Assembly: GCA_021784815.1 (NCBI GenBank)
Contig: JAJYHK010000005.1
Coordinates: forward strand, 25,917-89,916
DNA length: 64,000 nucleotides
DNA from: a bacterium
GTDB taxonomy: Bacteria; Patescibacteriota; Minisyncoccia; Phycocordibacterales; Phycocordibacteraceae
Direction: 5' to 3'
The notes beneath the pieces are model-generated. The model saw nothing but the letters and a program-made list of their open reading frames with translations. It was not told where the DNA came from and ran no database searches. How positions within the stretch are numbered: position 1 is the stretch's first letter; the number at the start of each line of letters is the position of its first letter. The position numbers and the translations under genes are program-made. Shown one piece after another: positions 4,273 through 61,841 of this stretch.

Positions 4273-4311
4273 TGCCTATAACTATAACTCCGCGGCAATG
4301 GTAATGGAGAC

Positions 4312-4349
4312 GCGAGCAAAGCCGCAACATGTGTCGCGGCTTTGCTCGC
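4312..4349. terminator. Strong stem-loop (GCGAGCAAAGCCGC...GCGGCTTTGCTCGC) between glmS and the convergent TraB-like gene
   Basis: 14-bp perfect stem 40 nt after glmS stop; no clear U-tract on either strand, so may act as a bidirectional terminator. Confidence 0.4.
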
Positions 4350-4367
4350 GTGATTCCTATCGGTACC

Positions 4368-4496
4368 GTACTTATTTTTGACGAGCGCCAGTACTTGATA
4401 CAGCGTCACAACCGTGTTGAATTTATTGGACACGAATCAGATTCTGTAGCATTGTATTTTCTTGGTATTTTAGCGAGATTCAGTTCGATTCCTGCA
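4368..4496. repeat. Local repeat family, copy D (core GCGTCACAACCGTGTT at 4403-4418; GTTCGATTCC at 4483-4492)
   Basis: Same core 16-mer, internal tattttct and T-arm-like decamer at the same spacing as copies A and B. Confidence 0.45.
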
Positions 4497-4506
4497 GACG
4501 TATCCA

Positions 4507-5346
4507 CTACTCAGGCAAATTCGCTTGCTCGACCAAAAACCGGAGCGGCAGCTCTTGCTTCACAGCGTGCGCCGAACCGTACACCGCGAACAAACGGTCA
4601 TATTTCTTTAATCCTTCTGCGATCCGCTCAAAAATGTGTTCGTTGCGAAAGGCACTTGAGCTTCGAGAAATTTTGTTAGTAACGCTCTGCGGTTTACCCT
4701 CCCACGGAATCGGATCCACCTTATCGCTATAGAACTGCTCGTCATCGAGCTGGAGACTCTCGATCACTTCCTTACCAAAAGCTGCGAGTTCTGCAGCATC
4801 CCATCCCGCACGTTGAACTAGCCGTTCTGATTCTTGCTCTACGATCCGCTCGCACGCTTTGGGGTCCCGATTCTCGTTATTTCGCTGGTACTGAAGTATG
4901 TCTCGAAACACGTAATAGTCGAAAATATCCCTCTTCGAGAAACCGCTCTCCATAAGGTGCTGGACCTCCATGGCAAATCGCGGTTCAGGCGACTCGAAAT
5001 CAGCTCCTGCGTCTACGGCAAGCTTCAGGGTATAGAAATTCTCGCCCTCCGTTCGCGCGTCCTCGATACTCATATTCTTGAGGCGTTCTCGCCAGCCTTC
5101 TTTGTCCTCGTTAGCCGATTCAATTCCTTCGACGTACACCATCTGCGGATTCGCTTTTTTGAGAGCGGCGGCGATGTCGTCGAGAACTGGGTCGGAGGGA
5201 TTGCCCGTGTGATACGTCCCGAAGTACGCCAGTTCCTTGGGGCCATTCTTTACCTCGAACTCGTAAACTCGCTTTCCCTCCTGACGCGCAAACGGGTGAT
5301 CCTGGTACTGCTCACTCGACAGGATCGCTCCTTTCAGCTCATCCAT
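4507..5346 (-). CDS. TraB/GumN (Tiki-like) family protein
   Basis: GxxH ... E ... GxxH arrangement (FGTYHTG ... VYVEGIES ... YGSAHAV) characteristic of the TraB/PrgY/GumN fold; function unknown. Confidence 0.45.
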   Translation of the reverse strand: MDELKGAILSSEQYQDHPFARQEGKRVYEFEVKNGPKELAYFGTYHTGNPSDPVLDDIAAALKKANPQMVYVEGIESANEDKEGWRERLKNMSIEDARTEGENFYTLKLAVDAGADFESPEPRFAMEVQHLMESGFSKRDIFDYYVFRDILQYQRNNENRDPKACERIVEQESERLVQRAGWDAAELAAFGKEVIESLQLDDEQFYSDKVDPIPWEGKPQSVTNKISRSSSAFRNEHIFERIAEGLKKYDRLFAVYGSAHAVKQELPLRFLVEQANLPE

Positions 5347-5388: not shown

Positions 5389-5560
5389 CCGCGTATGGAA
5401 ATACGCGGGTTTCTGGATTTTAGGGGCGTCGGAACAGTACCAATTTTGGTGCAGTTCCTGGCGTCACAACCGTGTTGCGGGGGCGGGAATTGACTTCACC
5501 CATCTCCGTCGCGTACTCCCTCAGTATTTTCTGTGGGCATCTGGTTCGATTCCCGCGCCC
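5389..5560. repeat. Local repeat family, copy B: hairpin (5389-5408) + ~70-nt flank repeat + degenerate copy of tRNA-Met 3' end (5461-5495) + inverted T-arm-like GGTTCGATTCCCGCGCC (5543-5560)
   Basis: About 85-90% identical to 11864-11975 (flank and last ~20 nt of the tRNA-Met gene) with one 12-13 nt indel; the tRNA part diverges (GTCAATT instead of the TTCGATT loop), so it is not a functional tRNA. Confidence 0.55.
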
Positions 5561-5853
5561 TCTCCTCAAAATCTAATTAACTAGAAACGTGACGCCCATT
5601 TCTTTTCTATTGGCCTTGCGGTATCAGCAAGTGGCTGGTATATTCATATAAAGGCATGGACGCTGCTGACACAGCCGAGCCGAGGAAAGAAATCCCTGAC
5701 TTGGGAAAGTAGAATCCTCCGGAGAAAGCCCGTAATAGCTTTAATGAGGTCAAGTGCGAGCTTGACGAAGTAAGGTGGCACCGCGACGACATTCGCCCTT
5801 ACAAATCCATCCGAAGTCTTAATTGGTGGATTTGTAAGGGATATTTTATTTAT

Positions 5854-7173
5854 ATGGAAAAAAGATTGCATATTAACGAAATACGGAATCATGTCGGCAA
5901 GGCGGTGACAATCGCAGGTTTTGTTCATATAGTCCGCGACCAAGGGAGCATAAAGTTCCTCATGATTCGAGATATCACCGGGATTATCCAGGTGGTGGTT
6001 ACCAAGCACAAGCCGGAAGCGCTTGAGATAGCAAAGACACTTACCCACGAATCGGTTGTGGAGATTATCGGACTCGCTAAAGAAGAGAAACAAGCTCCTG
6101 GCGGTTTTGAGATTGAAGCAGATCAAATTACAATCCTCTCCCTCGCTGATCCGGAGCTTCCGATACCTATTGTCGAGAAGGGTCAGCAGGAAGAAACTGA
6201 TCAGTCGACCCGGTTGGATTGGAGGTGGCTTGATCTTCGCAAGCCCGAGAAGGCACTTATTTTCAAAGTCTGGACGACGATGGAACAGGCATTCCGCTCG
6301 TACTGCATCAACAGCGGATTTATCGAGATCCATTCCCCTAAGCTAACCGCTACCGCGACCGAGTCCGGCGCTGAACTGTTCGCCGTGAAGTATTTTGACC
6401 AGGAGGCGCGCTTGGCGCAGAGTCCTCAACTGTATAAGCAGATGGCGATGGCAGCTGGCTTCGAGAAGGTCTTTGAGGTGGGTCCAGTATTCCGAGCAAA
6501 CCCGTCTTTCACCTCGAGGCACGATACCGAATTCACCATGTACGACGTTGAGGTGTCTTTCATCAAATCCCATCACGATTTGATGGATGAGGAGGAACGC
6601 ATGGTAGTCGCTATGCTTCAAGCAGTGAAGGAGAAGCACGGAGAGGAGATTGAGAAGCTCTACGGCCGTACCGTAGAAATCCCTAAACTTCCCTTCCCGC
6701 GACTGACGGTAAAAGAGGTTAAGGAAATAACCAGCCGCATGGGCATTCCCGACGAGCGCGATGGCGACATGAGTCCCGAAGAGGAGCGCGCGGTTTCCGA
6801 GCACATTCTGAAAGAAACCGGATCAGAGTTCCTGTTCATTCACGAATTCCCGACTAAGGTGCGCGCGTTCTATAGCATGCGCAAAGAGGACGACCTGGAG
6901 GTGACCAATAGCTTCGACCTTCTCTGGAACGGTCTCGAGATTACGAGTGGCGCTCAGCGCGAGCATCGGTACGAACAACTCAAGAAGCAAATCGAGGAGC
7001 AAGGTCTGGATGTTTCCGGATTCGAATCCTATCTTAATTTCTTCCGTTACGGCTGCCCTCCTCACGGAGGATTTGCTCCGGGACCGACGCGCATGCTCAT
7101 GAAGCTCCTGAATGTTGCGAACGTGCGCGAGGTGACGTATCTCTACCGCGGCGTGAAGCGTCTTACTCCGTAA
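5854..7173 (+). CDS. aspS: Aspartyl-tRNA synthetase, archaeal/eukaryal type (class IIb), paralog 1
   Basis: N-terminal OB fold; class II motifs (FRANPSFTSRHDTEFT, GGFAPGPTRMLM); C-terminus REVTYLYRGVKRLTP like archaeal-type AspRS (...RDRRRLTP); about 439 aa. Confidence 0.75.
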   Translation: MEKRLHINEIRNHVGKAVTIAGFVHIVRDQGSIKFLMIRDITGIIQVVVTKHKPEALEIAKTLTHESVVEIIGLAKEEKQAPGGFEIEADQITILSLADPELPIPIVEKGQQEETDQSTRLDWRWLDLRKPEKALIFKVWTTMEQAFRSYCINSGFIEIHSPKLTATATESGAELFAVKYFDQEARLAQSPQLYKQMAMAAGFEKVFEVGPVFRANPSFTSRHDTEFTMYDVEVSFIKSHHDLMDEEERMVVAMLQAVKEKHGEEIEKLYGRTVEIPKLPFPRLTVKEVKEITSRMGIPDERDGDMSPEEERAVSEHILKETGSEFLFIHEFPTKVRAFYSMRKEDDLEVTNSFDLLWNGLEITSGAQREHRYEQLKKQIEEQGLDVSGFESYLNFFRYGCPPHGGFAPGPTRMLMKLLNVANVREVTYLYRGVKRLTP

Positions 7174-7244
7174 GGTTTGCGTCATTCCTATTCCTATTGT
7201 CTAATAGGCGCTAAAGGGCTATAACTTCAGCAGGTCCCTTACCC

Positions 7245-8285
7245 TTGGAGGCGAGAATGAATACTGTGCCAGTGGCTGACCATTTGCGTCATGCCCTTAA
7301 CCTCAAGCCCCAGGAAGTTGCTCTTCGAAAAGAACTCGATGAATGGCTCCCCGAGGTAATCATCGACTGTCATGCTCATTGCAACCTGGAGGCACATGTA
7401 AAGAATGTGAGCGACTACGCTTACAAGCACATGATGTCGTCTTTCACCTACCTGAGCCTGGAGGACTCGGCGAGGTTGAAGGATCTGTTCTATCCGTTCA
7501 GGAAGGTCAGGTCGCTCCGATTTCCGAAGACATTCCGGGGAATTGATCATCGTGCGGCAAACGAATATTTGCTGAACGAAAGCCCGGAAGACGATCGCAT
7601 CGCCGTGTTCGGCCTGCCGGAAGATTTCGACTACACCGTCGGCATCATGCGGCATCCCCGAGCTTCGGCACTTAAGATGTATTGGTCGTATGTCGATCCT
7701 CCGGCCAAGAAGATATACGATTTCTTCACGCCGGAGATTCTGGAGGAGGCGCAAGCCCTCGACCTGCCAATCATTCTGCATCTTCCGCGAATGATCGTTC
7801 ATACCTGCGACGATCTCATGGCTGTGCTTTCGGACTTTCCTCACCTGAGGGTAGTGCTGGCGCACCTGGGGCTGTCGAAACTCTTGGTCCCGGGTTTGGA
7901 AGAGGCGTACCGGCGAGCCGCGCGTTCTCCGAACGTGTGGCTCGATACGGCGCTGAATCCCTCTCCAGAGGTCGTCTCGCTGGCGCTCGAATGCTTCGGA
8001 CGCGATCGCATCATGTTCGGCTCGGATGAGCCGTTGAACCTGCTGCGATCAGTCGCGTATAAACATCCCGAGAAAGGCGAACGGATCGTCACCGACTATC
8101 AGTACCACTGGGTTGATCCGGTTGAATATGCCGAGTACGGCCACCTTGCGAAGGATGCCGTGCACGCTCAGTGGCAGTGTACGTTGGCTATAAAGAAAGC
8201 GGTCGAGGGCTATCCGCTCGAGGAACAAGAAGGGCTGAAAGCGCTCATCTTCCAGAAGACGGCTGAGCATGTCTTCAGGTTCTGA
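7245..8285 (+). CDS. Amidohydrolase-2 family (TIM-barrel metal-dependent hydrolase)
   Basis: IIDCHAHCN metal-binding HxH start, later HLPR and AHLG...GSDEP motifs typical of PF04909-like amidohydrolases/decarboxylases. Confidence 0.55.
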   Translation: MEARMNTVPVADHLRHALNLKPQEVALRKELDEWLPEVIIDCHAHCNLEAHVKNVSDYAYKHMMSSFTYLSLEDSARLKDLFYPFRKVRSLRFPKTFRGIDHRAANEYLLNESPEDDRIAVFGLPEDFDYTVGIMRHPRASALKMYWSYVDPPAKKIYDFFTPEILEEAQALDLPIILHLPRMIVHTCDDLMAVLSDFPHLRVVLAHLGLSKLLVPGLEEAYRRAARSPNVWLDTALNPSPEVVSLALECFGRDRIMFGSDEPLNLLRSVAYKHPEKGERIVTDYQYHWVDPVEYAEYGHLAKDAVHAQWQCTLAIKKAVEGYPLEEQEGLKALIFQKTAEHVFRF

Positions 8286-8322
8286 ATTGCACGGCGAGCT
8301 GAAACCAGCTCGCCGTGATTTT

Positions 8323-8805
8323 TTATTCTTCCTTTATAAGTTTCGCAAGTGCTGCAAGTTCTTCATCGCTCTCTCGCTTGTAGTCGTGGGAAGAAATATA
8401 CCCCTCGTAAACATCAAAGTATTTTTCGACATCGACTTTCCTTTCTTTCCACTCATCGGCCTTAGTACCATGCATCGGGAACATTTTTGCGTGGAGATGG
8501 TTCACTCCGAACCCTTCAAAAATCACTCCGGTACGCCCCACGTCCTCCAGCTTCGCGTCTAGTAATTTTGCGACCTTACCGGCTGCTAGTACCAGATCGG
8601 TCACGACTTGGTCAGGCAAATCAAAGAGGTAGCTGGGGTGATGGTCTTTCGGAATAACTACGGAAAAACCTTTAGTGTTAGGAAAGATGGAAAGAAACGC
8701 CACATGCTTGTCGTCCTCCCATATTCTGTGTGCAGGTTCTTCGCCCGCCGCAATTTTGCAAAATACGCAATCGTCTTTCCATACCATATCGATTGATTTT
8801 ATCAC
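8323..8805 (-). CDS. HIT-family (histidine triad-like) hydrolase with non-canonical motif
   Basis: N-terminal CVFCKIAAGEEPAH...VIPKDHH matches HIT fold; catalytic region reads NHLHAK (H-x-H-x-K rather than H-x-H-x-H). Confidence 0.65.
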   Translation of the reverse strand: MIKSIDMVWKDDCVFCKIAAGEEPAHRIWEDDKHVAFLSIFPNTKGFSVVIPKDHHPSYLFDLPDQVVTDLVLAAGKVAKLLDAKLEDVGRTGVIFEGFGVNHLHAKMFPMHGTKADEWKERKVDVEKYFDVYEGYISSHDYKRESDEELAALAKLIKEE

Positions 8806-8866
8806 GAGGCTTTTTATATAAAAGAATGGCCCGGAGCATTGCTGCTCCGGGCCACGCCGTATCCCC

Positions 8867-10168
8867 TTACGGGGTCAGGCGATTCGGACCTCGATAGAGG
8901 TACGTGACTTCACGAACCGTACTGCGGTTCAGCAGAATCATGAGCAGCCGGGTGAGACCGACGCCCATACCACCGTGAGGCGGACATCCGTAACGGAAGA
9001 AGCCGAGGTAGTCCTGGATCGTCTCCAAGTCCACACCCTTCTCCTCTGCCTGCTGCTTCAGCCGCTCGTAGCGATGCTCGCGTTGCGCCCCGGTCGTCAC
9101 TTCGAGCCCCTTCCAGAGAAGGTCGAAGCTCTTGGTGATTTCCGGGTTGTCCTCCTGCCGCATGTGGTAGAAGGCACGCACGCTGACCGGGTAGTCCGTG
9201 ACGAACACGAACTCATGCCCGTGCTGCCCGAAGATGTGTCGAGCAAGCATCCGTTCGCCTTCGGGGTCCAGATCCTCCTTGTGGGAGATGATATGGCCCT
9301 GCTGGGCGAGAATCTCGCGCGCTTCCTCGAGGGAAATACGCGGGAACGGAAGTGTCGGCACCGCCACCTTCACGCCGAACGTCTCCTCTATTTCAGAGCC
9401 GTATTCGGTCGAGATGCGAGACAGGACATAGGCCAGCCACGCCTCCTCGATTTTCATGACGTCCTCGTGCGATTCGATCCACGAGACCTCCATATCCACG
9501 GACGTGAATTCCGTGTCGTGGCGGCTCGTGAACGAGGGGTTGGCCCGGAACACCGGACCAATCTCGAAGATCCGATCGAATCCTGCCGCCATCGCCATCT
9601 GCTTGTAGAATTGTGGCGATTGAGCGAGACAGGCCTCCGTATCGAAGTACGGGAGCTTGAACAGCTCCGACCCCGATTCGGTCGCGGCCGGTGTCAGCTT
9701 TGGAGAGTGAATCTCCAGGAAGCCGCGCTCGGCCCAGAATTCCCGCATCGCTTGCTCCATCAAGGTTTGCACCTTGAAAATGAGCAGGTTTTCTGGTCGC
9801 CTGAGCGAGATGTAACGCCAGTCCAGCTGCTTGTCGAGCGCAGAATCGGCCGCGATTGGCAGAGGGGACTCCGCCACGGACGCGATTTGGATATCGGTTG
9901 CCCGAATCTCCAAGCCGCCCAGTTTCACTTTAGGGTCGAGAATGACCTGCCCGGTGACCTGGAGGGCAGAGCCCGACGTGATGCCGGTGAGGAGGCTTGT
10001 GATGGAAGCCGCCCCGTCCGTCTTGTCGTGTGCCACCTGGACGAGTCCAGTGTGGTCCCGGATCGTGAGAAACAGCATGCGCTTTTGATCGCGCACCGTT
10101 TCCACGAATCCCTTTACCGTCACCTCGCCGGTAGCGAGGCTAAGGGCCTTGATGAATGTGCGTTGCAT
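8867..10168 (-). CDS. aspS: Aspartyl-tRNA synthetase, archaeal/eukaryal type (class IIb), paralog 2
   Basis: About 65% identical to the 5854-7173 product over the catalytic core (FLEIHSPKLTPAATESGSELF, FRANPSFTSRHDTEFT, REVTYLYRGPNRLTP); start placed at the internal Met (MQRTFIKA) preceded by GGAGA; ORF track starts 12 codons earlier. Confidence 0.75.
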   Translation of the reverse strand: MQRTFIKALSLATGEVTVKGFVETVRDQKRMLFLTIRDHTGLVQVAHDKTDGAASITSLLTGITSGSALQVTGQVILDPKVKLGGLEIRATDIQIASVAESPLPIAADSALDKQLDWRYISLRRPENLLIFKVQTLMEQAMREFWAERGFLEIHSPKLTPAATESGSELFKLPYFDTEACLAQSPQFYKQMAMAAGFDRIFEIGPVFRANPSFTSRHDTEFTSVDMEVSWIESHEDVMKIEEAWLAYVLSRISTEYGSEIEETFGVKVAVPTLPFPRISLEEAREILAQQGHIISHKEDLDPEGERMLARHIFGQHGHEFVFVTDYPVSVRAFYHMRQEDNPEITKSFDLLWKGLEVTTGAQREHRYERLKQQAEEKGVDLETIQDYLGFFRYGCPPHGGMGVGLTRLLMILLNRSTVREVTYLYRGPNRLTP

Positions 10169-10213
10169 AGTCTTTCTCCGCTTTGACAATTGACGATAGG
10201 ACACATCTGCCGC

Positions 10214-11533
10214 TTAGGGGTAGACCCGGCGACGGAAGATGCGCGGGAACGGGATTGCGTCCCGTACATGTGGAATGTTGAGCATCCAGCGGATCATCCG
10301 CTCGACACCCATTCCGAACGCAGCATGCGGCACACACCCGAGCTGATGGACCTCGCGGACCCATTCATACCGGGGATCGTTACGCTTGTCTTTCTCAGTG
10401 AGACGCTCATCGAGCATCTCGATGTCGTAGATCTTCTCGGCGACGCCGAGAAGCTCGCCCATCCCGTTGCTCGCGATCAGGTCGGCGACGCGCGTGATGC
10501 GCGTGTCGGACGGATCGATGCAATATGGGAAAGGCTCTACGACTCGCGGAATCCCGATGACCCAGAACGGGGTCGAGGGGAAAAGCTCGGAGAGCCTTCT
10601 TTCTTCCGCGCCACCGAGCCCCTTGCCGAACTCGATGTCGAAGCCGTCTTTCTTCAGAAGTTTGACGGCATCTTCATACGAGATACGAGGGAATGGCGTT
10701 CTCATACCATCCAGGCACATTGACGTGTCGAGGACTTGCGCCACGTCGGGGCTTTTCTGCCAGCACGTCTTCGTAACGTGGGAGATGAGCCCCTCGACGA
10801 TCCGAATGATGTCTTCGAGATCAGCGAAAGCGATTTCCGCTTTGATGTGGTGGTACTCCATGAGGTGCCGAGGACTCCGCGACTCCTCGCCGCGGAAACT
10901 CGGTCCCATGTTGTACACGCGCTCGAACGCGTGAACCGCTGCTTCGAGATAGTACCCGACGCATTGGGTCATGAAGATGTGTTCGCCGTTGATTTCGACG
11001 CCCACAGCTGACCCGTCATCGTAGAGCGGGATCGGCGTGAGAATCGGGGCATCGATTTCGAGGAAATGGTTATCCTCGAACCAGCGCCGGACTTCCGACA
11101 TCATGAGGCTCCGGAACTTCAAGATCTCCATGATCTTTGGGTTCCGAAGATACAAATGCCGGTTGGACAGCAGCTGATCGGTCAGCTTGGTATCGAACAC
11201 GTCCACATCGCCCCGCGGCTGCGGGGAGACGGGAATGCTCGCTCTGCTGATGATGCGGATTTCATCGACCGCGATTTCGCGCGGCCGATTGACATGAGAC
11301 ACCACCTTGCCAGAGACTTCGATAGCGGATTCGAGCGGGATATGCCCGATCGCATCGAATTTGTTTTCTCCGACGCGATTTCGCTCGATAACGACCTGGA
11401 TGACGCCGGTCGAGTCCATCACGTCGAGAAAGCAAATGCCGCCGCTGTGCCTTCTTGACCGAAGCCAACAAGGCAGGACGATGTCGACCCCGGCTCGCCG
11501 TTCGAGCAGGTCGGAAACGTACACACTTTTCAT
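10214..11533 (-). CDS. asnS: Asparaginyl-tRNA synthetase-like class IIb aaRS (divergent)
   Basis: OB-fold N-terminus; motif 2 SFRGEESRSPRHLMEYHHIKAE; motif 3/C-terminus GFGMGVERMIRWMLNIPHVRDAIPFPR typical of AsnRS; start placed at Met of MKSVYVSD preceded by GGAGA (track ORF extends 38 codons further). Confidence 0.65.
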   Translation of the reverse strand: MKSVYVSDLLERRAGVDIVLPCWLRSRRHSGGICFLDVMDSTGVIQVVIERNRVGENKFDAIGHIPLESAIEVSGKVVSHVNRPREIAVDEIRIISRASIPVSPQPRGDVDVFDTKLTDQLLSNRHLYLRNPKIMEILKFRSLMMSEVRRWFEDNHFLEIDAPILTPIPLYDDGSAVGVEINGEHIFMTQCVGYYLEAAVHAFERVYNMGPSFRGEESRSPRHLMEYHHIKAEIAFADLEDIIRIVEGLISHVTKTCWQKSPDVAQVLDTSMCLDGMRTPFPRISYEDAVKLLKKDGFDIEFGKGLGGAEERRLSELFPSTPFWVIGIPRVVEPFPYCIDPSDTRITRVADLIASNGMGELLGVAEKIYDIEMLDERLTEKDKRNDPRYEWVREVHQLGCVPHAAFGMGVERMIRWMLNIPHVRDAIPFPRIFRRRVYP

Positions 11534-11859
11534 CACTAATCTCCTTCCACGAGACAGTAGGACGTTGGTTGACAGTGGAGAGGCTTTCGCAGTCGTTCGT
11601 GAGTTGTCAAAGAACTCGTACGAAATACCAAATTTATAATATAACAAATCACCTTATTTGTACAGTGCATGTTCAGTGCTGGGTATTCTTACGCCCATAC
11701 GAGGGCAGGAATACAGAACCGGCGTATTTGCTTGGCTGTACAGTTCGATTCCTACGCCCGTGCTCAAAATCGGGGGAATTCGAGTGTGACTGCGACACAA
11801 AACCGCACCGAGTACGAGAATAGGAATCGAACTAGCTATTTATTGTATTTGCTACATAG

Positions 11860-11966
11860 CCCAAAAACCCGCGCATGGAAATACGCGGGTTTTTGGGCTT
11901 TTAGGGGCGCCGGAACAGTACCAATTTTGATGCCTGTCGGTACTGGTTCCTGGCGTCACAACCGTG
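11860..11966. repeat. Local repeat family, copy C (3' trailer of tRNA-Met): hairpin CCCAAAAACCCGCG/CGCGGGTTTTTGGG (11860-11897) + flank repeat + core GCGTCACAACCGTGTT (11954-11969)
   Basis: Direct-repeat partner of 5389-5485; the hairpin is flanked by T-runs on plus and A-runs read as U on minus, so it can act as a bidirectional intrinsic terminator. Confidence 0.55.
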
Positions 11967-12037
11967 TTGCGGGGGTGGGAATCGAACCCACGCCTGGAGG
12001 TTATGGGCCTCCCGAGCTACCTCTGCTCTACCCCGCT
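11967..12037 (-). tRNA. tRNA-Met (anticodon CAU), probably initiator-type; CCA not encoded
   Basis: Cloverleaf: acceptor AGCGGGG/CCCCGCA with A1.A72 mismatch, D-stem GAGC/GCTC (A11:U24), anticodon stem GGAGG/CCTCC, loop CCCAUAA, T-arm GTGGG-TTCGATT-CCCAC, discriminator A; followed by CAC not CCA. Confidence 0.85.
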
Positions 12038-12801: not shown

Positions 12802-14235
12802 CTACGCACGATGCAGTTTCTCCACCGCTGCGCCGACCGCAAAGAGCGCGTCTTCTGCGGTATGCGGCGCGAGGAACTGCATGCCGGCCGGCAACTGCGC
12901 CCCCTCGTATGAGACGGTCTTCATAGGCACCGATATTGCCGGAATGCCCGCGAGGTTTGCGGTCACCGTAAAAAGATCTTCGAGATACATCGAAAGCGGG
13001 TCTCCCTTCTCGCCTATCGCAAACGCGGGAGCCGGCATAGTCGGGGTCGCAATCACATCCACCGATTCGAATGCCCGGGCGAAATCCTGTGCGAGAAGCG
13101 AGCGTGCCGCAACGGCCTTGCGGTAGTATGCGTCGATATAGCCCGAAGAGAGCACAAAGGTACCGAGCAAGATACGCCGCTGCGTCTCCGGCCCGAACCC
13201 TTCGGAGCGCGAGAGGAGGTAGTCGTCGAGAAGCGTGTCGCCGCGCTTGGCAAGCCCGTAGCGGATACCGTCGAAGCGCGCGAGATTCGTCGAAACTTCG
13301 GCAAAGTTGATGATGTAATAGGCCGCGAGCGCGGGCGCTGCCGATGGCAACGCGATGTCGACGAGTTCGTAGCCTGCACGCTTGAGCGCGGTGAGTTCCG
13401 TCTCAAATGCCTCTTTTACCTCGGCCGCGATGCCCTCGCCCCTGAGGGCATCATGCAGCACGCCGATGCGCCTGGGAGCGATTGTCTTCTCGCGGCGCGG
13501 TGCGGCAAGCGTTGTCGAATCGAGCGGATCCGGTCCGGTAATCGCGTCGAGTACAGTGCGCGCGTCCGCAACCGTTTTCGCGAGCACGCCGACCTGGTCG
13601 AAGGACGAGGCGGCGGCAATGATGCCGGAGCGCGAGACGCCGCCGTAGGTCGGCTTCACACCGACGACGCCGCAGTAGCTCGCCGGATTGCGTACCGAAC
13701 CGCCGGTGTCGGTACCGAGTGCGGCAATGCACAGGTGCGCGGCGACGGCGGCCGCCGAGCCGCCCGAGGTACCGCCCGCGACGCGCGTCGGATCGTGTGG
13801 GTTCCTCGTCACGCCGAAGGCCGAGTGCTCGGTCGAGCCGCCGAGTGCGAATTCGTCCATGTTAGTGCGTCCGAGAAAGAGCGCGTTATGCGCGCGCAGC
13901 TTCTTCACCACGGTCGCGTCATAAGTCGCGCGATAGCACTCAAGCATCTTGCTTGCGGCGCTCGCGACTTTGTCCTCGACGAGAATATTGTCTTTGAGCG
14001 CGAGCGGAATGCCGCAAAGGAGCGGCGCCTTCTCGCCTTCCTCGTCGATACGCTTCTGTGCTGCTTCAATAGCAGCGTCGTCCGCATCAAAAATCTCCAG
14101 ATACGCGTTGAGCGAAGGGTTTTTTTCTTCCGCCGCCGTCGCGCATGCCCCCCACAATGTGCGGACGGTGAGCGCGCCCGCGCGCAGCGCGCGCGCCGCC
14201 TCCTCGAGCGTCAGTTCATTTGCCGGCTTAGTCAT
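12802..14235 (-). CDS. gatA: Asp-tRNA(Asn)/Glu-tRNA(Gln) amidotransferase subunit A
   Basis: Amidase signature family (GGSSGGSAAAVAA, catalytic Ser-cisSer-Lys region), 477 aa, immediately downstream of gatC. Confidence 0.9.
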   Translation of the reverse strand: MTKPANELTLEEAARALRAGALTVRTLWGACATAAEEKNPSLNAYLEIFDADDAAIEAAQKRIDEEGEKAPLLCGIPLALKDNILVEDKVASAASKMLECYRATYDATVVKKLRAHNALFLGRTNMDEFALGGSTEHSAFGVTRNPHDPTRVAGGTSGGSAAAVAAHLCIAALGTDTGGSVRNPASYCGVVGVKPTYGGVSRSGIIAAASSFDQVGVLAKTVADARTVLDAITGPDPLDSTTLAAPRREKTIAPRRIGVLHDALRGEGIAAEVKEAFETELTALKRAGYELVDIALPSAAPALAAYYIINFAEVSTNLARFDGIRYGLAKRGDTLLDDYLLSRSEGFGPETQRRILLGTFVLSSGYIDAYYRKAVAARSLLAQDFARAFESVDVIATPTMPAPAFAIGEKGDPLSMYLEDLFTVTANLAGIPAISVPMKTVSYEGAQLPAGMQFLAPHTAEDALFAVGAAVEKLHRA

Positions 14236-14515
14236 GCTGGATGATCTGCTTTACGGAAAGGTAGTCGCCGTCGCGCGCCGGAAACTGCGCGGTTATCTGT
14301 TCCGTATAGCGGCCGGCTTCGTGCGGGGTTCTATCGGCGCGCATGACGTTGCGGTGCTCCGGCACCTGCGCGAGCGACGACAGGTCGAGCTTCTCGAGTT
14401 GCCCGACATATCCGATGATCGCGTCAAATTCTTTTGCAAACGCTTCCACCTGCGCCTCCGAAAGCGAGAGCCGCGCGAGCGCGGCGAGCTTACGAACGTC
14501 CCCCGGAGTAGCCAT
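14228..14515 (-). CDS. gatC: Asp-tRNA(Asn)/Glu-tRNA(Gln) amidotransferase subunit C
   Basis: About 95-aa protein, LARLSLSEAQVEAFAKEFDAIIGYV typical GatC; overlaps gatA start by 8 nt. Confidence 0.8.
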   Translation of the reverse strand: MATPGDVRKLAALARLSLSEAQVEAFAKEFDAIIGYVGQLEKLDLSSLAQVPEHRNVMRADRTPHEAGRYTEQITAQFPARDGDYLSVKQIIQHD

Positions 14516-14550
14516 GGCGCTACTGTACCACACCCCATTTCGATCGGCCG

Positions 14551-31328: not shown

Positions 31329-31889
31329 ATGGCAGCCGAGCCGTACGACCCCTCCGATGAAGCGCTCGCCGCCCTCGTGCAAAAAAACGATCATGCCGCG
31401 TTCGCGCTTCTCATGGACCGCTACCAGCCGAAGCTCCTGCGCTACGGACGGCGCTTTCTCGCACAGCAAGAACCGATCGACGATGCGGTGCAAGACGTCT
31501 TTCTCAAGGTATATCAAAATATCCAGAGCTACGACGCGCAGCGCCCGTTCGCGCCCTGGATCTACCGCATCGCCCATAACGTCTTCACAAACGAGCTCCG
31601 GCGGAAGAGCCGCAAACCGCTTGTTACGCTCGATCTCGATATGCTCTCGGCGCACACCGCATACGAGATCGACCCGGCCGGTGAAGAGGAGCAGCGCCAG
31701 GTGGAAACGCTTATCAACCGAGGACTCGATGCACTACCTTCGCGATACCGCGAAGTCACGGTCCTACACTATATCGAAAACCTCAGCTATCAGGAGATCG
31801 CTGACGTGCTCCATGTCCCGGTCGGCACGGTGGGCATCCGCCTCTACCGGGCACGCCAAGTCCTGAAAAAATATGTCGAACAATCCTGA
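31329..31889 (+). CDS. RNA polymerase sigma factor, ECF (sigma-24) subfamily
   Basis: Region 2 (DAVQDVFLKVYQNI...FAPWIYRIAHNVFTNELRRK) and region 4 HTH (SYQEIADVLHVPVGTVGIRLYRARQ). Confidence 0.85.
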   Translation: MAAEPYDPSDEALAALVQKNDHAAFALLMDRYQPKLLRYGRRFLAQQEPIDDAVQDVFLKVYQNIQSYDAQRPFAPWIYRIAHNVFTNELRRKSRKPLVTLDLDMLSAHTAYEIDPAGEEEQRQVETLINRGLDALPSRYREVTVLHYIENLSYQEIADVLHVPVGTVGIRLYRARQVLKKYVEQS

Positions 31890-40513: not shown

Positions 40514-40736
40514 GGGGCTGTTCCTTCCAGCTCGGTTTCGTCTCAGTTTATTATGCAGGAGAAATATGCCGCCCGTCAAGTTTTGGGCTGGTAGTAAGCG
40601 AAGCAACCGATTCTGAAGGCCGATTGTTACAGGTGCCATACTGGCGACTCTCGTTTTGCCGATTAGACTCCGATTCGCTTCGGTTTCCTGTCCTATATCG
40701 CGGAATCCGCTGCTTCTTGCGTGCGTGGCGTAGCCC

Positions 40737-40997
40737 GTGCTATCCTGTGTCTCACAGATGGAGGCATTCGTATTGGCATTGCCCTACGCGGAAATTGTCC
40801 TCTCTATCCTCCTTATCGTCGGCATCGTGCTCCAGCAGCGCGGCGCGACCCTAGGCGGGGCCTTTGGAGGCGACAATTTCGCATCAACATTCTACAAGCG
40901 CCGTGGCGCCGAGAAGTTTTTGTTCAATGCGACGATAGGCGTCGCCGTACTGCTCGTCCTTGCGGCAATCGCCAACTTCCTTCTGGTAGGGTCATGA
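40737..40997 (+). CDS. secG: Preprotein translocase subunit SecG
   Basis: About 85 aa, two TM helices with conserved LLQQRGATLGGAFGG loop. Confidence 0.6.
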   Translation: MLSCVSQMEAFVLALPYAEIVLSILLIVGIVLQQRGATLGGAFGGDNFASTFYKRRGAEKFLFNATIGVAVLLVLAAIANFLLVGS

Positions 40998-42727
40998 CGC
41001 GCAACGGCGCCCGAGAGCGTCTTGCGGCGTATTTAGAACCCCTTACGCGGCAACGCCGTGTTCGGCTGTTTGAAGCTGTTTCCGTGCGTCTGCGCACGCT
41101 CCCGGCGAGTGATCGGCTTTTCTTAGGGATGCTCGGAGCACTGATCGCCATTACCGCCGTTGCGAGCGTCTTTGCGCTCGAGCACAAGCTCCTCGTCATC
41201 GTTCCTGCGTACGGCGGCACGCTCGTCGAGGGGGGTGTCGGTAGTCCGCGCTTTATAAATCCGCTCCTTGCTATTAGCGATGCAGATAACGACCTCACGA
41301 CGCTTACCTACGCCGGCCTCATGGGCATCTCGGGCGGCGGTTCGCTCGTGCCGGTTCTTGCCCAGAGCTATACCGTGTCGCCTGACGGTAAGACGTACAC
41401 CTTTACCCTGCGGCCGAATGCGCAATTCAGCAATGGTATGCCGGTTACTGCGCAAGACGTGGTATACACGGTGGAGAAAGCGCAGGATCCGGCGCTCAAG
41501 AGCCCGGAGTACGCTGACTGGGCGGGTATCGGGGTGACTGCCGTAGACCCGCACACGGTGCGCTTCACCCTCCCCCGGCCCTACGCGCCATTCCTTGAGC
41601 TCACGACCCTCGGCATCCTGCCCTCAGAGCTCTGGAAGGGCGCTTCGGTCGAAGACTTCCCGTTCTCACAACTTGAGACGCACCCTGTAGGCGCCGGGCC
41701 GTTCATGGTGACGAGCGTGTCGCGCAATTCGTCAGGCCTCATTACGAACGTGACGCTCGCGGAGAATCCCCACTACCCGCTCGGCCGGCCCTACTTGGGC
41801 GGCTTACAATTCAAGTTCTACTCCCGCATCGAAGACCTCGCCTCAGCACTCAAGAATGGCGCCATTGAGAGCGCGTACGGTATTTCTACGCCCGGTGCCC
41901 TACTCGCGCCCTATTCGCGCATCTTCGGGGTCTTCCTGAACCCGAGCGAAAACCAAGCTTATTCGCAGCCGGCAGTGCGCGAGGCGCTCTCGCTCGCGAT
42001 TGACCGGCAAGCGCTCGTGCAGAACGTGCTTGGGGGCTACGCCACGGCAATCATGGGTCCGGTTCCTCCGGGAAGCGGCATCACCCAGGCAGCGATCCCG
42101 AGCGCGGCGAACTACACCGCGGCGGCAGCCCAGGTACTCGAGCGCGCAGGCTGGTCCTACGACAGCAACGCGCGCGAGTGGAAGAACGGAAAACTCACGT
42201 TGCAAAACATCACCCTGCGCACGAGTAACGCCTCGGAGCTCAAGAATGTGGCGCTGGCCGTGCAGCGCGACTGGCAACAGCTAGGCGTCACCGTATCGGT
42301 CGAGCTGTATGAGCCGGGCGACCTCTCGCAAAACGTGATCCAGCCGCGCGCCTATGACGCGCTGCTCTACGGCGAGGTCATCGGCCGGAGTCAGGATCTG
42401 TACGCATTCTGGAATTCCCAGGAACAGAACAACCCCGGCCTCAATGTCGCGCTCTACGCGAACAAAAGCGTCGATGCGCTCCTTGAGGACGCGCGTACCA
42501 ATCCCAACCCGAAAGCCCGCCTCTCCGACCTGCAGCAAATCGAGATAACAATCGCTTCTGACTACGGCGCCGTTTTCCTCTACGCACCGGACTTCGTGTA
42601 CTCGGTCCCCGCAGGACTCCGCGGGGTGAAGTTACCCCAGATTGCCGCGCCCGCAGACCGGTTCGCGAATGTGTCGAAGTGGTACCTCGATACCGCGCGG
42701 GTTTGGCCGTTTTTTGCTAAGCAGTGA
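40994..42727 (+). CDS. ABC transporter substrate-binding protein, family 5 (peptide/nickel-type)
   Basis: N-terminal signal-anchor, SBP_bac_5 core (TYTFTLRPNAQFSNGMPVTAQDVVYT ... QNNPGLN), about 575 aa; start at ATG overlapping secG stop. Confidence 0.75.
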   Translation: MTRNGARERLAAYLEPLTRQRRVRLFEAVSVRLRTLPASDRLFLGMLGALIAITAVASVFALEHKLLVIVPAYGGTLVEGGVGSPRFINPLLAISDADNDLTTLTYAGLMGISGGGSLVPVLAQSYTVSPDGKTYTFTLRPNAQFSNGMPVTAQDVVYTVEKAQDPALKSPEYADWAGIGVTAVDPHTVRFTLPRPYAPFLELTTLGILPSELWKGASVEDFPFSQLETHPVGAGPFMVTSVSRNSSGLITNVTLAENPHYPLGRPYLGGLQFKFYSRIEDLASALKNGAIESAYGISTPGALLAPYSRIFGVFLNPSENQAYSQPAVREALSLAIDRQALVQNVLGGYATAIMGPVPPGSGITQAAIPSAANYTAAAAQVLERAGWSYDSNAREWKNGKLTLQNITLRTSNASELKNVALAVQRDWQQLGVTVSVELYEPGDLSQNVIQPRAYDALLYGEVIGRSQDLYAFWNSQEQNNPGLNVALYANKSVDALLEDARTNPNPKARLSDLQQIEITIASDYGAVFLYAPDFVYSVPAGLRGVKLPQIAAPADRFANVSKWYLDTARVWPFFAKQ

Positions 42728-50976: not shown

Positions 50977-51546
50977 TTAGAGCGAGAATGTTTTTGGGAG
51001 GGCGGCGCGCAAAGCGCGCTTTGCCCGATAAATAAGCGTAGAAACGGTTCCGAGCGGTACCTGGAGAATATCAGAAATTTCGGTATAGGAACGATCATCG
51101 AAGAAGCGCAGAATGAGCACCTCCCGGTAGTGCGAATCGATAACCGCAAGCGCGCGGGAGAGCTCCTCCCGCGAGAGCCGCCGCTCAGCAGCCCCGGCGG
51201 AGTCCGCGTGCTCGTCGCGTAGTTCAGACATGAGGAATTCGCTGTCCTCACTTAGGACCACCTGTGGCCGGGCGCGGCGAGCGCGGAAAAAGCTCATGGC
51301 TTCATTGTGCGCAATGCGGTAGATCCACGACGAAAACGACAGTGCCGGGTCGAAACTGTTGAGGTTTCGATATGCCTTGATAAATACGTTCTGCAGAATG
51401 TCTTCACGATCTTCGCGCACACCCACGCCGAGCCGCTCCAGGTAACGGCCAAGCTTCGCCTCATAGCGGCTAATGAGTTGCGCGAAGGCGTCTTTCTCGG
51501 CGATTGTCCTGCGGACAATTTCTTCATCGGTCGGTTCTCCCGGCAT
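50977..51546 (-). CDS. RNA polymerase sigma factor, ECF subfamily
   Basis: Region 2 (ILQNVFIKAYRNL...WIYRIAHNEAMSFFRAR) and region 4 (SYTEISDILQVPLGTVSTLIYRAK). Confidence 0.85.
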   Translation of the reverse strand: MPGEPTDEEIVRRTIAEKDAFAQLISRYEAKLGRYLERLGVGVREDREDILQNVFIKAYRNLNSFDPALSFSSWIYRIAHNEAMSFFRARRARPQVVLSEDSEFLMSELRDEHADSAGAAERRLSREELSRALAVIDSHYREVLILRFFDDRSYTEISDILQVPLGTVSTLIYRAKRALRAALPKTFSL

Positions 51547-53914: not shown

Positions 53915-53980
53915 GCAGCGCAGGATACAACAACAGCTACGCGCTCGCTTGGGAAAGCGAACGCGTAGCTGTTGTTGTGG

Positions 53981-54636: not shown

Positions 54637-54826
54637 TAGAACTCATTTCAATGATAATGGCGAGCGAAAACGGCAAAAATCCGTCGGGAGGCTCAATGAG
54701 GCCGTTTTAGCGTACCTGAGGTACGGGGAAACGGACGAAGCCGAGCCGCAGCAGGATTTTTGCCGTTTTCACTCGCCAAACTACGAGTTCTTTCATAAAA
54801 AGTGATTATTATTGAAATGAGTTCTA
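54637..54826. repeat. MITE-like element, long form (about 190 nt) with nested inverted repeats
   Basis: Terminal IRs TAGAACTCATTTCAATGATAAT / ATTATTGAAATGAGTTCTA plus internal IR GGCGAGCGAAAACGGCAAAAATCC / GGATTTTTGCCGTTTTCACTCGCC; predicted to fold into a single long hairpin. Confidence 0.6.
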
Positions 54827-60971: not shown

Positions 60972-61073
60972 TACGACACGTTACTACACGGTTACGCTAA
61001 CACTCTTCGTTATTACTTTCTAAGCCCCAACCTTGCACCTCAAGATAGCGTTTCAAGATGACATCTTGAAACG

Positions 61074-61841
61074 CTATCTTGAGGATACGGTAACTGGCGT
61101 CGCGCCGCCGTTTTCGAGGATGATCGTGTGCTCGAAGCAGGCGACGCGCGAGCCGTCCTTCGTGACAAAAGAAAACCCGTCAGAGGCGAGCGTGATGGCT
61201 GCTTTCCCGATACCGACGATCGGCTCGATCGCGAGCACCATACCCTCCTCGAGCAGAGGCCCCGTCCCTGCCTTACCGAAATTGGGAATGAACGGTTCCT
61301 CGTGCACGAGTTCACCGAGACCGTGCCCGCCGAGCGCTTTGATAATAGTGAAGCCTGCCTTCTCGACCACGCGCTGCACCGCGTGGGATATGTCGCCTAC
61401 GCGGCCGTCGGGGACAGCGGCCGCAACCCCCGCCGAAAGAGCGGCCTTCGTCACGTCAAGCAGCTTCTGCGAGCGTTCGTCTACCTGCCCTACCGGCACG
61501 GTTATAGCAGAATCGACCACCATGCCGTCATGAACGAGACCAAGGTCGAGAATGACGATATCGCCCTCTTTGATGACCTTGGCAGCCTGCGGCAGGCCGT
61601 GGGCTGCCTCCTCATTTACCGATACACAAAGGCTCGCCGGATAGGGATGCATGCCGTCGGGCGCGTAGCCCAGAAACGCGGGTGTGTCGCCGCCATCGCG
61701 GATAAGCTTCTCAGCAAGGTCATCGAGACTCTGTGCCGAGACGCCCGGCGCAACCTGCTTGCCAAGCTCCTCCAATACGCGCGCAAGGCGCCTGCCGCCC
61801 TCAATGAGCGCCGTCCGCTGCCGATCGGTTGCAATAGTCAT
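61074..61841 (-). CDS. map: Methionine aminopeptidase type I
   Basis: Pita-bread fold metal ligands (D..D..H..E..E pattern in DIVILDLG, HGLGEL, EPIV, FEHT); 255 aa; follows adk as in the spc/alpha operon tail. Confidence 0.9.
   Translation of the reverse strand: MTIATDRQRTALIEGGRRLARVLEELGKQVAPGVSAQSLDDLAEKLIRDGGDTPAFLGYAPDGMHPYPASLCVSVNEEAAHGLPQAAKVIKEGDIVILDLGLVHDGMVVDSAITVPVGQVDERSQKLLDVTKAALSAGVAAAVPDGRVGDISHAVQRVVEKAGFTIIKALGGHGLGELVHEEPFIPNFGKAGTGPLLEEGMVLAIEPIVGIGKAAITLASDGFSFVTKDGSRVACFEHTIILENGGATPVTVSSR

Follow-up and report, generated by a model that had tools for sequence, protein, structure and literature searches.

A proposed composite aspartate/asparagine tRNA-charging locus beside a tRNA-Met gene of a Patescibacteriota genome, with a candidate AspRS-protecting phosphoramidase

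The subject of this analysis is a gene block at positions 5389-12037 of a 64,000-nucleotide stretch of DNA (hereafter the window; NCBI GenBank assembly GCA_021784815.1, contig JAJYHK010000005.1, positions 25,917 to 89,916) from a bacterium of the Patescibacteriota, in the candidate phyla radiation (CPR). The block holds five genes in two convergent units, flanked by repeats of the 3' end and trailer of a tRNA-Met gene; on one strand an aspartyl-tRNA synthetase (AspRS-1) is followed by an amidohydrolase, and on the other an asparaginyl-tRNA synthetase (AsnRS) is followed by a second AspRS (AspRS-2) and a HIT-fold protein. We propose, with a probability of roughly 0.55, that this is a composite locus for the charging of tRNA with Asp and Asn, situated at the 3' end of tRNA-Met, a hot spot for insertions, and carrying an enzyme that protects AspRS. 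Under this proposal AspRS-1 would be the ordinary AspRS of the lineage, switched on by an attenuation T-box that reads uncharged tRNA-Asp, and, going by the signature of its anticodon domain, would be non-discriminating and feed GatCAB; AsnRS would charge tRNA-Asn next to a presumably discriminating AspRS-2, providing an alternative direct route. The HIT protein would hydrolyse aspartamide- or isoasparaginyl-adenylate mimics of Asp-AMP and so shield AspRS, such mimics being what peptide-scavenging CPR cells would import as Trojan-horse peptide-nucleotides, and the amidohydrolase may, more speculatively, turn the released isoasparagine or another Asp amide into aspartate. The AsnRS-AspRS-2 pair itself appears to have been swapped recently between divergent Paceibacteria. 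An earlier reading of the bare sequence (the original prediction) had listed the genes of the block, and all its listed coordinates were confirmed. The Pfam scan reported below covered 35 open reading frames (ORFs) of the window, about half of those in it. In the feature list Tk denotes Thermococcus kodakarensis AspRS numbering:

5648-5848, plus strand: T-box leader whose stem I is ultrashort; the specifier, at 5668-5670, is GAC (Asp); T-box sequence AAGGUGGCACCGCG, intrinsic terminator at 5796-5848
5854-7173, plus strand: AspRS-1, of archaeal type and a member of the mainstream Paceibacteria family, with His at Tk-W26 and Pro at Tk-K85
7257-8285, plus strand: Amidohydro_2 metal-dependent hydrolase (Pfam) with invariant HxH, His175, His203 and Asp257
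8290-8317, plus strand: terminator-like hairpin separating the convergent units
8323-8787, minus strand: HIT protein with an MccH-type motif, Phe where the N-terminal His would be and a conserved Trp in its C-terminal extension
8826-8855, minus strand: 13-bp terminator-like hairpin in the gap between AspRS-2 and HIT
8867-10168, minus strand: AspRS-2, archaeal-type AspRS of a family adjoining Paceibacteria AsnRS; Lys at Tk-K85
10214-11533, minus strand: AsnRS of a Paceibacteria family
11636-11664, minus strand: promoter-like site 5' of AsnRS (consensus match only)
11966-12037, minus strand: tRNA-Met (CAU), its 3' end facing into the block
12802-14235, minus strand: gatA, a core gene just beyond the block
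14228-14533, minus strand: gatC, a core gene just beyond the block

The three synthetases, all with complete anticodon-binding and catalytic domains in the Pfam scan, are two lineage-typical systems lying together, not exotic extras. AspRS-1 and AspRS-2 are 53% identical as proteins, and the figure of about 65% given earlier corresponds instead to their DNA identity (64% over 935 nt). Against the 353-bit cut-off of NCBIfam NF003483 they score 509 and 469 bits, respectively, and both show the archaeal-type architecture without a GAD domain. Homologues of AspRS-1 number more than 100 (66-94% identity) and include ones from Lloydbacteria and Liptonbacteria, and at locus L017 the AspRS-1 counterpart is the sole AspRS, lying between relA and dnaB behind a T-box. 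AspRS-2 represents the second large Paceibacteria family and directly follows AsnRS in loci L002-L010, L014 and L016. The idea that these are extra or odd AspRS copies thus does not hold, and the same is true of the supposedly unusual "AsnRS-like" gene. Its product falls below the equivalog cut-offs of two NCBIfam models (284 against 414 bits for NF003037, 259 against 343 for TIGR00457); its nearest solved structure is the AsnRS of P. horikoshii (1X54, E 1e-75), with AspRS at 5e-49, and its numerous homologues are annotated as asparagine--tRNA ligase, the named ones coming from Paceibacteria, Paceibacterota, Adlerbacteria, Taylorbacteria or Patescibacteria. Judged by these relatives it is an ordinary AsnRS of the Paceibacteria (CPR). 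At L014 (GCA_964399075.1, 5570-11320) a single unit consists of AsnRS, AspRS-2 and the amidohydrolase, with a T-box and AspRS-1 divergent from it and no HIT gene, amid the core genes lepA, murJ and tsaD; by this arrangement the three synthetases cluster even where the HIT gene is missing.

Alignment of the two AspRS with that of T. kodakarensis (3NEL/1B8A) and with AspRS2 of T. thermophilus (1N9W, named non-discriminating in the PDB) separates them in the anticodon domain. AspRS-1 combines the His and Pro listed above with GF.H and APGG strings like those of Thermus AspRS2 (KAPGG), and AspRS-2 has Glu at Tk-26 and, as in the Thermococcus enzyme, Lys at Tk-85; the signature of non-discriminating enzymes would be His or Gln at Tk-26 together with Pro at Tk-85. 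Across the families, position Tk-85 is Pro in 102 of 120 type-1 sequences and Lys or Arg in 117 of 119 of type 2. The substitutions W26H and K85P reportedly relax T. kodakarensis AspRS toward tRNA-Asn. GatA and GatC are subunits of the amidotransferase needed by the indirect route to Asn and Gln, and the order past tRNA-Met is a gene for a 201-aa protein, gatA, gatC and ligA. Given the position-85 signatures, the adjacent gatCA genes and the fact that type 2 is always paired with AsnRS, we suggest that AspRS-1 is probably non-discriminating and serves the indirect GatCAB route, and that AspRS-2 is probably discriminating and works with AsnRS on the direct one. A discriminating/non-discriminating pair had been the fallback of the original prediction, and going by these anticodon-domain signatures it is the best reading of the synthetases.

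A comparable set is found in Thermus and Deinococcus, in which a discriminating AspRS1, an archaeal-type non-discriminating AspRS2, AsnRS and GatCAB occur together (PMC4206432). The window resembles the T. thermophilus and D. radiodurans systems in having two AspRS, AsnRS and GatCA and in the GF(L/V)H...APGG that AspRS-1 shares with AspRS2 (1N9W). It differs in that both its AspRS are archaeal-type without GAD, the three synthetases lie within 6 kb, the copy of non-discriminating type is under T-box control and the AsnRS/AspRS-2 pair has apparently been exchanged laterally.

The T-box leader 5' of AspRS-1 had been missed in the earlier reading. It scores 47.8 bits against Rfam RF00230 (gathering threshold 93; local E 2e-9), falling short because 4 nt replace 74 model positions of the distal stem I. 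The leader nonetheless carries AAGGUGGCACCGCG and an antiterminator that competes with the terminator and U tract at 5796-5848. The terminal loop of its stem I reads CUGACA, so that the specifier is followed by a purine. An ultrashort stem I with the specifier in its terminal loop also occurs in actinobacterial ileS T-boxes. T-boxes further precede the AspRS-1 orthologues of L004, L014, L016 and L017, and in the resulting five-locus alignment GACA is invariant while the stem beneath it covaries (GCUG/CAGC, ACCG/CGGU, ACUG/CAGU, GUUG/CAAC). Because GACA stays constant while the stem changes are compensatory, the specifier can be read as GAC and the leader as a sensor of uncharged tRNA-Asp. A T-box of Clostridium acetobutylicum is reported to control a tRNA-dependent Asn pathway; there as here a T-box would govern an extra AspRS where both routes to Asn exist, yet in the window the specifier is GAC (Asp) and not AAC (Asn), and stem I is ultrashort. 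The T-box had also raised the thought that AspRS-1 is a foreign backup copy; this was dropped, as Paceibacteria normally have AspRS-1 behind a T-box. No Rfam match indicated a regulatory RNA 5' of AsnRS.

The HIT domain was recognized both by Pfam (PF01230, E 3.7e-10) and by comparison with B. subtilis Hit (1Y23, E 7e-14). The noncanonical H-x-H-x-K of this protein, pointed out earlier, is borne out by the latter alignment, which sets its NHLHAK against HYHMH and its KGFSVVIPK against KGHTLVIPK, such that Phe stands for the N-terminal His (HinT H39). The surrounding segment FEGFGVNHLHAKMF fits ExxxxxHxHxKxx, with Lys in place of the third His of the triad and Glu five residues ahead of the triad. 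Precisely these features define the MccH clade, namely ExxxxxHxHxKxx, Phe instead of the N-terminal catalytic His and a C-terminal extension (Yagmurov et al. 2020, mBio, PMC7157772). In MccH the Lys is essential, and the enzyme hydrolyses aspartamide-adenylate, the AspRS inhibitor released from compounds of the microcin C (McC) type (PMC7157772), yielding AMP and isoasparagine (PMC8323819). The same sequence features are present in the orthologues of L002, L004, L006, L007 and L016, with the motif invariant in six orthologues; among 80 metagenomic homologues ExxxxxHxHxK is found in all 80, Phe in 76 and Trp at K+12 in 71. By its defining motif the HIT protein is accordingly a bona fide candidate for an MccH-type phosphoramidase. 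It shares with MccH of Hyalangium minutum and the stand-alone homologues the HIT fold, ExxxxxHxHxKxx, the catalytic Lys, the Phe and the Trp at K+12, and with the stand-alone homologues a location outside any mcc cluster and AspRS as the presumed target enzyme; what sets it apart is that the gene adjoins AspRS, and in many other Patescibacteria loci it likewise lies beside or near an AspRS gene; its activity is a predicted one.

The neighborhoods of these HIT genes were surveyed by scanning metagenomes with the HIT alignment, which yielded 80 loci at 64-74% identity, and by clustering the ORFs within 3.5 kb of HIT. Class IIb synthetases (AspRS and AsnRS) are the commonest neighbors, at 18 of the 80 loci and at 7 of the 30 with 2 kb or more of sequence to each side; for an assumed genome of about 1 Mb with one or two AspRS genes, chance adjacency would be expected at about 1-2%. 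They are followed by an ABC exporter at 7 loci and by the amidohydrolase and ProRS at 6 each. The AspRS partners are of three kinds: the AspRS-2 type, a bacterial type, and other archaeal types (L078, L100). Those of bacterial type align to the bacterial AspRS model in two stretches that together span only some 400-430 residues, which points to a missing GAD insertion; they lie immediately downstream of HIT in L033, L071 and L086, and the order in L072 is bacterial AspRS, HIT, GatA, GatB. As these independent associations involve different types of AspRS, they argue for a functional tie between HIT and AspRS. We found no paper describing linkage of MccH and AspRS genes, and a text search of the MccH study itself found no account of it (PMC7157772).

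At L005 and L009 the HIT gene is absent, and an S66 peptidase lies instead beside the amidohydrolase of the AspRS-2 cluster. It matches the MccF-like protein of B. anthracis at E 2.6e-43 and muramoyltetrapeptide carboxypeptidase at 1.2e-14, which is suggestive only of a putative MccF rather than an LD-carboxypeptidase. In the manner of MccF-based immunity to processed McC, an MccF-like S66 peptidase would thus replace HIT at these two loci, unlike in the block of the window, which has no S66 peptidase.

Other neighborhoods were recorded in the course of the survey. ProRS lies near an MccH-like HIT gene in L042, L058, L073, L078, L091 and L096, together with IspH/LytB in four of them, and the ABC exporter is found in seven other loci. 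In L005 (1701-9906) a run of genes on one strand 5' of AsnRS encodes hisC-like aminotransferase, ThiF-like, nitroreductase-like, PaaK-like ligase and histidine kinase-like proteins as well as an ABC exporter, and may represent a cluster of the small-molecule or peptide-modification kind. Its ThiF-like and nitroreductase-like proteins resemble a split protein of the Rv1355c family, and the idea of an mcc-like cluster beside the L005 block was rejected, as they match that family and not MccB.

The linkage data bear directly on a strong form of the immunity module offered in the original prediction, a dedicated island in which a drug-insensitive AspRS was acquired horizontally along with MccH (and, in some relatives, an MccF-like peptidase) as a means of surviving antibiotics that mimic Asp-adenylate, and in which the T-box induces the spare AspRS once the sensitive one is blocked. 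What speaks for it is the MccH-clade signature of HIT and its linkage with three types of AspRS, the MccF-like peptidase in the position of HIT at two loci, a tRNA-Asp-sensing T-box that would respond to inhibition of AspRS, the recent AsnRS-AspRS-2 exchange and the recovery of the block as a separate contig of 6.3-7.3 kb in several assemblies. On the other hand, both types of AspRS are large families, and T-box plus AspRS-1 is standard even where it is the sole AspRS at a locus. Both paralogs also keep QSPQ(L/F)YKQ, FRANPSFTSRHDTEF and the motif-3 arginine, and their (T/S)GAQREH blocks are near-identical; because their catalytic motifs are essentially the same, nothing hints at altered adenylate binding or a drug-insensitive AspRS. 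We know of no McC-resistant AspRS. None is mentioned in PMC8323819 either, and the explanation further leaves AsnRS without a role. The original prediction as a whole is partly borne out. Its immunity module survives in the HIT component, which has the MccH motif and recurs near AspRS, but its resistant synthetase finds no active-site sign, and we regard an island of this kind as unlikely. A separate observation touches the same question: the window encodes, at 40721-42727 and not linked to the block, an extracellular peptide-binding protein of OppA/DppA type (SBP_bac_5, E 2e-68), which bears on immunity because Trojan-horse peptide-nucleotides enter via peptide import.

The survey likewise weighs on a plainer explanation, in which the locus is a housekeeping one, HIT is a general nucleotide hydrolase clearing aminoacyl-adenylate or Ap4A-type by-products of the class IIb synthetases, the amidohydrolase belongs to unrelated metabolism, and repeats and high identity come from ordinary, non-adaptive recombination among related strains. 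The three synthetases are of lineage-typical families, AsnRS, AspRS-2, (HIT) and the amidohydrolase occupy the same tRNA-Met/gatCA/ligA locus in L002, ProRS recurs by HIT at six loci, and the natural substrates of HinT are unknown (PMC8323819). Yet the published MccH motif coincided with loss of activity on the HinT model substrate and gain of aspartamide-adenylate hydrolysis, not with HinT activity (PMC7157772), and the linkage is to three unrelated types of AspRS and not to class II synthetases generally. The identity gap against L002 (95% versus about 60%) is also too big for uniform vertical descent. All in all we regard this explanation, too, as unlikely.

A third explanation, also offered in the original prediction, is that of a tRNA-dependent biosynthetic or amidation cassette, in which the extra synthetases would supply Asp- or Asn-tRNA for a metabolite or cell-wall component. 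Its support is confined to the fact that three synthetases and two hydrolases lie together and to the ABC exporter near HIT in 7 metagenomic loci. The five genes of the block leave no space for another enzyme, and the 35 scanned ORFs included no ThiF/MccB-type adenylyltransferase, no member of the other expected pathway families and no mcc-type cluster (MccB, precursor peptide, exporter) by the HIT gene, so that the biosynthetic genes such a cassette calls for did not turn up among them. The ThiF/nitroreductase genes of L005 belong with Rv1355c and not MccB, and the synthetases keep complete anticodon-binding and catalytic domains; a cassette of this sort is highly improbable.

The amidohydrolase retains its metal ligands (HxH, His, His, Asp) in all 11 orthologues, and a close solved or characterized relative was not found, even by profile search. 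In the window it appears to be co-transcribed with AspRS-1, the gap between the two genes on the same strand being without a terminator-like site. Across the loci examined the gene is found beside an AspRS gene or near the cluster. It directly follows AspRS-1, sharing its strand, in the window, L004 and L016, follows AspRS-2 in the same way in L014, and is on the opposite strand in L002, L005, L006 and L007. It is our speculation that it frees Asp, for example from isoasparagine, which would fit control by an Asp-sensing T-box.

Comparison with L002 indicates that the composite locus has been assembled from parts of different histories. The two share the order ligA, gatC, gatA, hypothetical gene, tRNA-Met, AsnRS, AspRS-2, HIT and amidohydrolase, with the following protein identities:

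Window versus L002, flanks: LigA 60.7%, GatA 62.8%, GatC 46.5%, 201-aa protein 46.5%
Window versus L002, block: AsnRS 94.8%, AspRS-2 96.5%, amidohydrolase 93.9%, HIT 71%

A sliding DNA profile gives the same picture (flanks 30-66%, AsnRS-AspRS-2 89-98%, HIT 66-71%, amidohydrolase 81-91%), with homology to L002 ceasing at window position 7280. In light of this discontinuity the block is a recombination mosaic containing a recently exchanged synthetase pair. HIT is 71-78% identical in protein to its counterparts in L002, L004, L006 and L016 versus 86-96% for its neighbors in the block, which suggests either allele replacement or fast evolution within the cassette. The same five genes recur in L004 and L016 in wholly different surroundings. 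From the start of the window through the HIT gene the G+C content is 46-55% against 58% overall. Viral contigs were considered as carriers of the block; they gave AspRS matches of just 47-49% and not the block.

The direct repeats of about 100 nt that the original prediction had placed around the two convergent units are present. In a self-comparison 5389-5493 and 11869-11985 are 82.9% identical over 117 columns with a 12-nt indel, and for an 18-mer and a 30-mer of the repeat none of 100 shuffles each attained the observed number of matches. The final ~20 nt of tRNA-Met make up one part of the repeat; the others are a 17-mer that is conserved, a trailer hairpin of 14 bp and a terminator that works in both directions. 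Two further copies and two associated segments, X and Y, complete the set:

5389-5493, unstranded: distal repeat copy with trailer hairpin and terminator; last ~20 nt of tRNA-Met at 5474-5493, with 2 mismatches
11869-11985, unstranded: proximal repeat copy with tRNA-Met 3' end, trailer hairpin and bidirectional terminator
4310-4495, unstranded: degraded copy of repeat and X, between glmS and a gene for a 279-aa protein
2138-2347, unstranded: older copy of repeat and X, more degraded still
5494-5575, plus strand: X, segment 3' of the tRNA fragment, common to the copies at 2263-2347 and 4440-4495 and ending in the tRNA-3'-end-like TTCGATTCCyGC
11742-11833, unstranded: Y, long hairpin situated between the terminator of tRNA-Met and AsnRS, with tRNA-T-arm-like arms AGTTCGATTCC and GGAATCGAACT and a counterpart at the equivalent position of L002

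As in tRNA-associated islands with att repeats, the block abuts the 3' end of a tRNA gene, the distal direct repeat contains that 3' end, degraded tandem copies lie beyond, and the distal part shows an insertion sequence (IS) fragment and lower G+C. Unlike in such islands, the window has no integrase, most of the repeat is trailer (about 100 nt) with just 20 nt of tRNA, and the same genes are found at the same site of L002 without a second repeat. That site is not an empty one, since L002 holds AsnRS-AspRS-2-HIT-amidohydrolase there; it has one repeat copy, and the sole parts missing from it are the T-box with AspRS-1 and the distal repeats. Horizontal acquisition, as proposed earlier, gains from the exchange signature of AsnRS-AspRS-2 and the att-like tRNA-Met copies, and loses from the lack of an integrase and of the repeats around the block elsewhere.

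Part of the oldest copy (2138-2287) is 85.5% identical to the native tRNA-Met trailer of L002, terminator included, for which reason the copies look like displaced att-like scars of serial insertions beside tRNA-Met. A generic genome-wide repeat, which would have spoken against the significance of these copies, was ruled out: all four lie within the first 12 kb near tRNA-Met, and no further copies occur at 12-64 kb of the window or in other genomes except the single native copy in L002. That the repeats are a built-in part of a mobile cassette found no support, given that L004, L016, L006 and L002 have the genes without flanking repeats.

Several features of the surroundings are recorded here in their own right. 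Pieces resembling tRNA T-arms or 3' ends (TTCGATTCCyGC) occur on both strands beside the trailer copies, at 2263-2347, 4440-4495, 5494-5575 and 11742-11833 and at 9760-9870 of L002; they resemble scars of tRNA-targeting integration, no recombinase or conserved fold was found with them, and no conserved fold was detected that would make structured RNAs of X and Y. ORF 1673-2173 (166 aa only), abutting the oldest repeat copy, has an ISXO2-like DDE transposase domain (IS1595 family, E 3e-15), and ORF 1084-1686, upstream of and overlapping it, has no Pfam match; together, ORFs 1084-2173 may be a frameshifted IS remnant. Large serine recombinases (Resolvase and Recombinase domains, with a zinc ribbon in L006) adjoin the same synthetase block at L006 286-1614 and L016 4002-5342, and the region 1-4000 of L016 near the recombinase contains ParB, a weak terminase match, a DNA methylase and a LOOT RNA, giving it prophage- or mobile-element-like surroundings. 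Genes of the block lie on short contigs in at least four independent assemblies (L001 of 6507 nt and others of 6281, 7171 and 7318 nt); the ends were inspected in L001, where they coincide exactly with the 30-nt identical core of the repeat, and contigs of this kind would fit repeats or strain-variable surroundings. On the far side of the distal copy, the ORF at 4507-5346, earlier called TraB-like, matches TraB only below threshold (E 0.0011).

Farther off, a type IV pilus/type II secretion cluster occupies 16.8-27.8 kb of the window (T2SSF, T2SSE and PilM, with pilin-like genes recognized by synteny with L002), its gene order kept in L002 at about 72% DNA identity. Self-comparison also revealed palindromes of 47-123 nt that are 75-98% self-complementary, listed repeats at 53306-53386/54635-54827, 53927-53978, 54658-54778 and 61038-61084, a direct-repeat pair of about 45 nt near 53.3 and 54.7 kb, and an inverted match of 197 nt at 65% between 31388-31579 and 51305-51499.

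Several observations weigh against the composite locus as proposed. The assignment of specificities to the two AspRS leans mainly on one position and on the W26H/K85P rule; Tk-26 is variable in both families, in L011 it is an AspRS-1-like enzyme that adjoins AsnRS, and gatB is absent among the 35 scanned ORFs. For the protective role of HIT, about three quarters of the MccH-like HIT genes do not adjoin AspRS, and in the window a terminator-like hairpin parts AspRS-2 from HIT. Two stand-alone MccH homologues from Parcubacteria have been assayed, of which one was inactive on E. coli McC (PMC7157772). As to insertion, the G+C content of AsnRS and AspRS-2 is genome-typical, the block contains no integrase or recombinase, its five genes filling it, and in L004, L016 and L002 the same block lacks flanking repeats.

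Every component family of the composite locus is already known, namely archaeal-type AspRS, AsnRS, the T-box, the MccH-clade HIT protein and Amidohydro_2, as are dual routes to Asn in Thermus and Deinococcus, and current knowledge is not overturned. What may be new is, first, that an anti-microcin C hydrolase family is recurrently linked to the gene of its protected target, AspRS, with three types of the latter. The natural role of stand-alone MccH was left open in the original paper (PMC7157772), and linkage to AspRS in the absence of a biosynthetic cluster provides a testable hint at it. Second, the essential AsnRS and AspRS-2 were swapped, at about 95% identity, between divergent Paceibacteria in a tRNA-Met hot spot.

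More tentatively, and as a possibility we hold to be the weaker bet, the Patescibacteria might harbor a laterally mobile AspRS protection cassette, in which an MccH-type phosphoramidase or an MccF-like peptidase is tied to whatever type of AspRS the cell employs and the amidohydrolase recycles isoasparagine to aspartate. The recurrent MccH-AspRS linkage suggests that CPR bacteria, reliant on imported peptides, meet aminoacyl-nucleotide antibiotics. Were such a cassette real, linkage to the target gene would serve as a genomic marker for antibiotics of this kind and their immunity genes, and Trojan-horse mimics of aspartyl-adenylate would exert a major, so far overlooked selection on the peptide-scavenging CPR members of groundwater and sediment communities.

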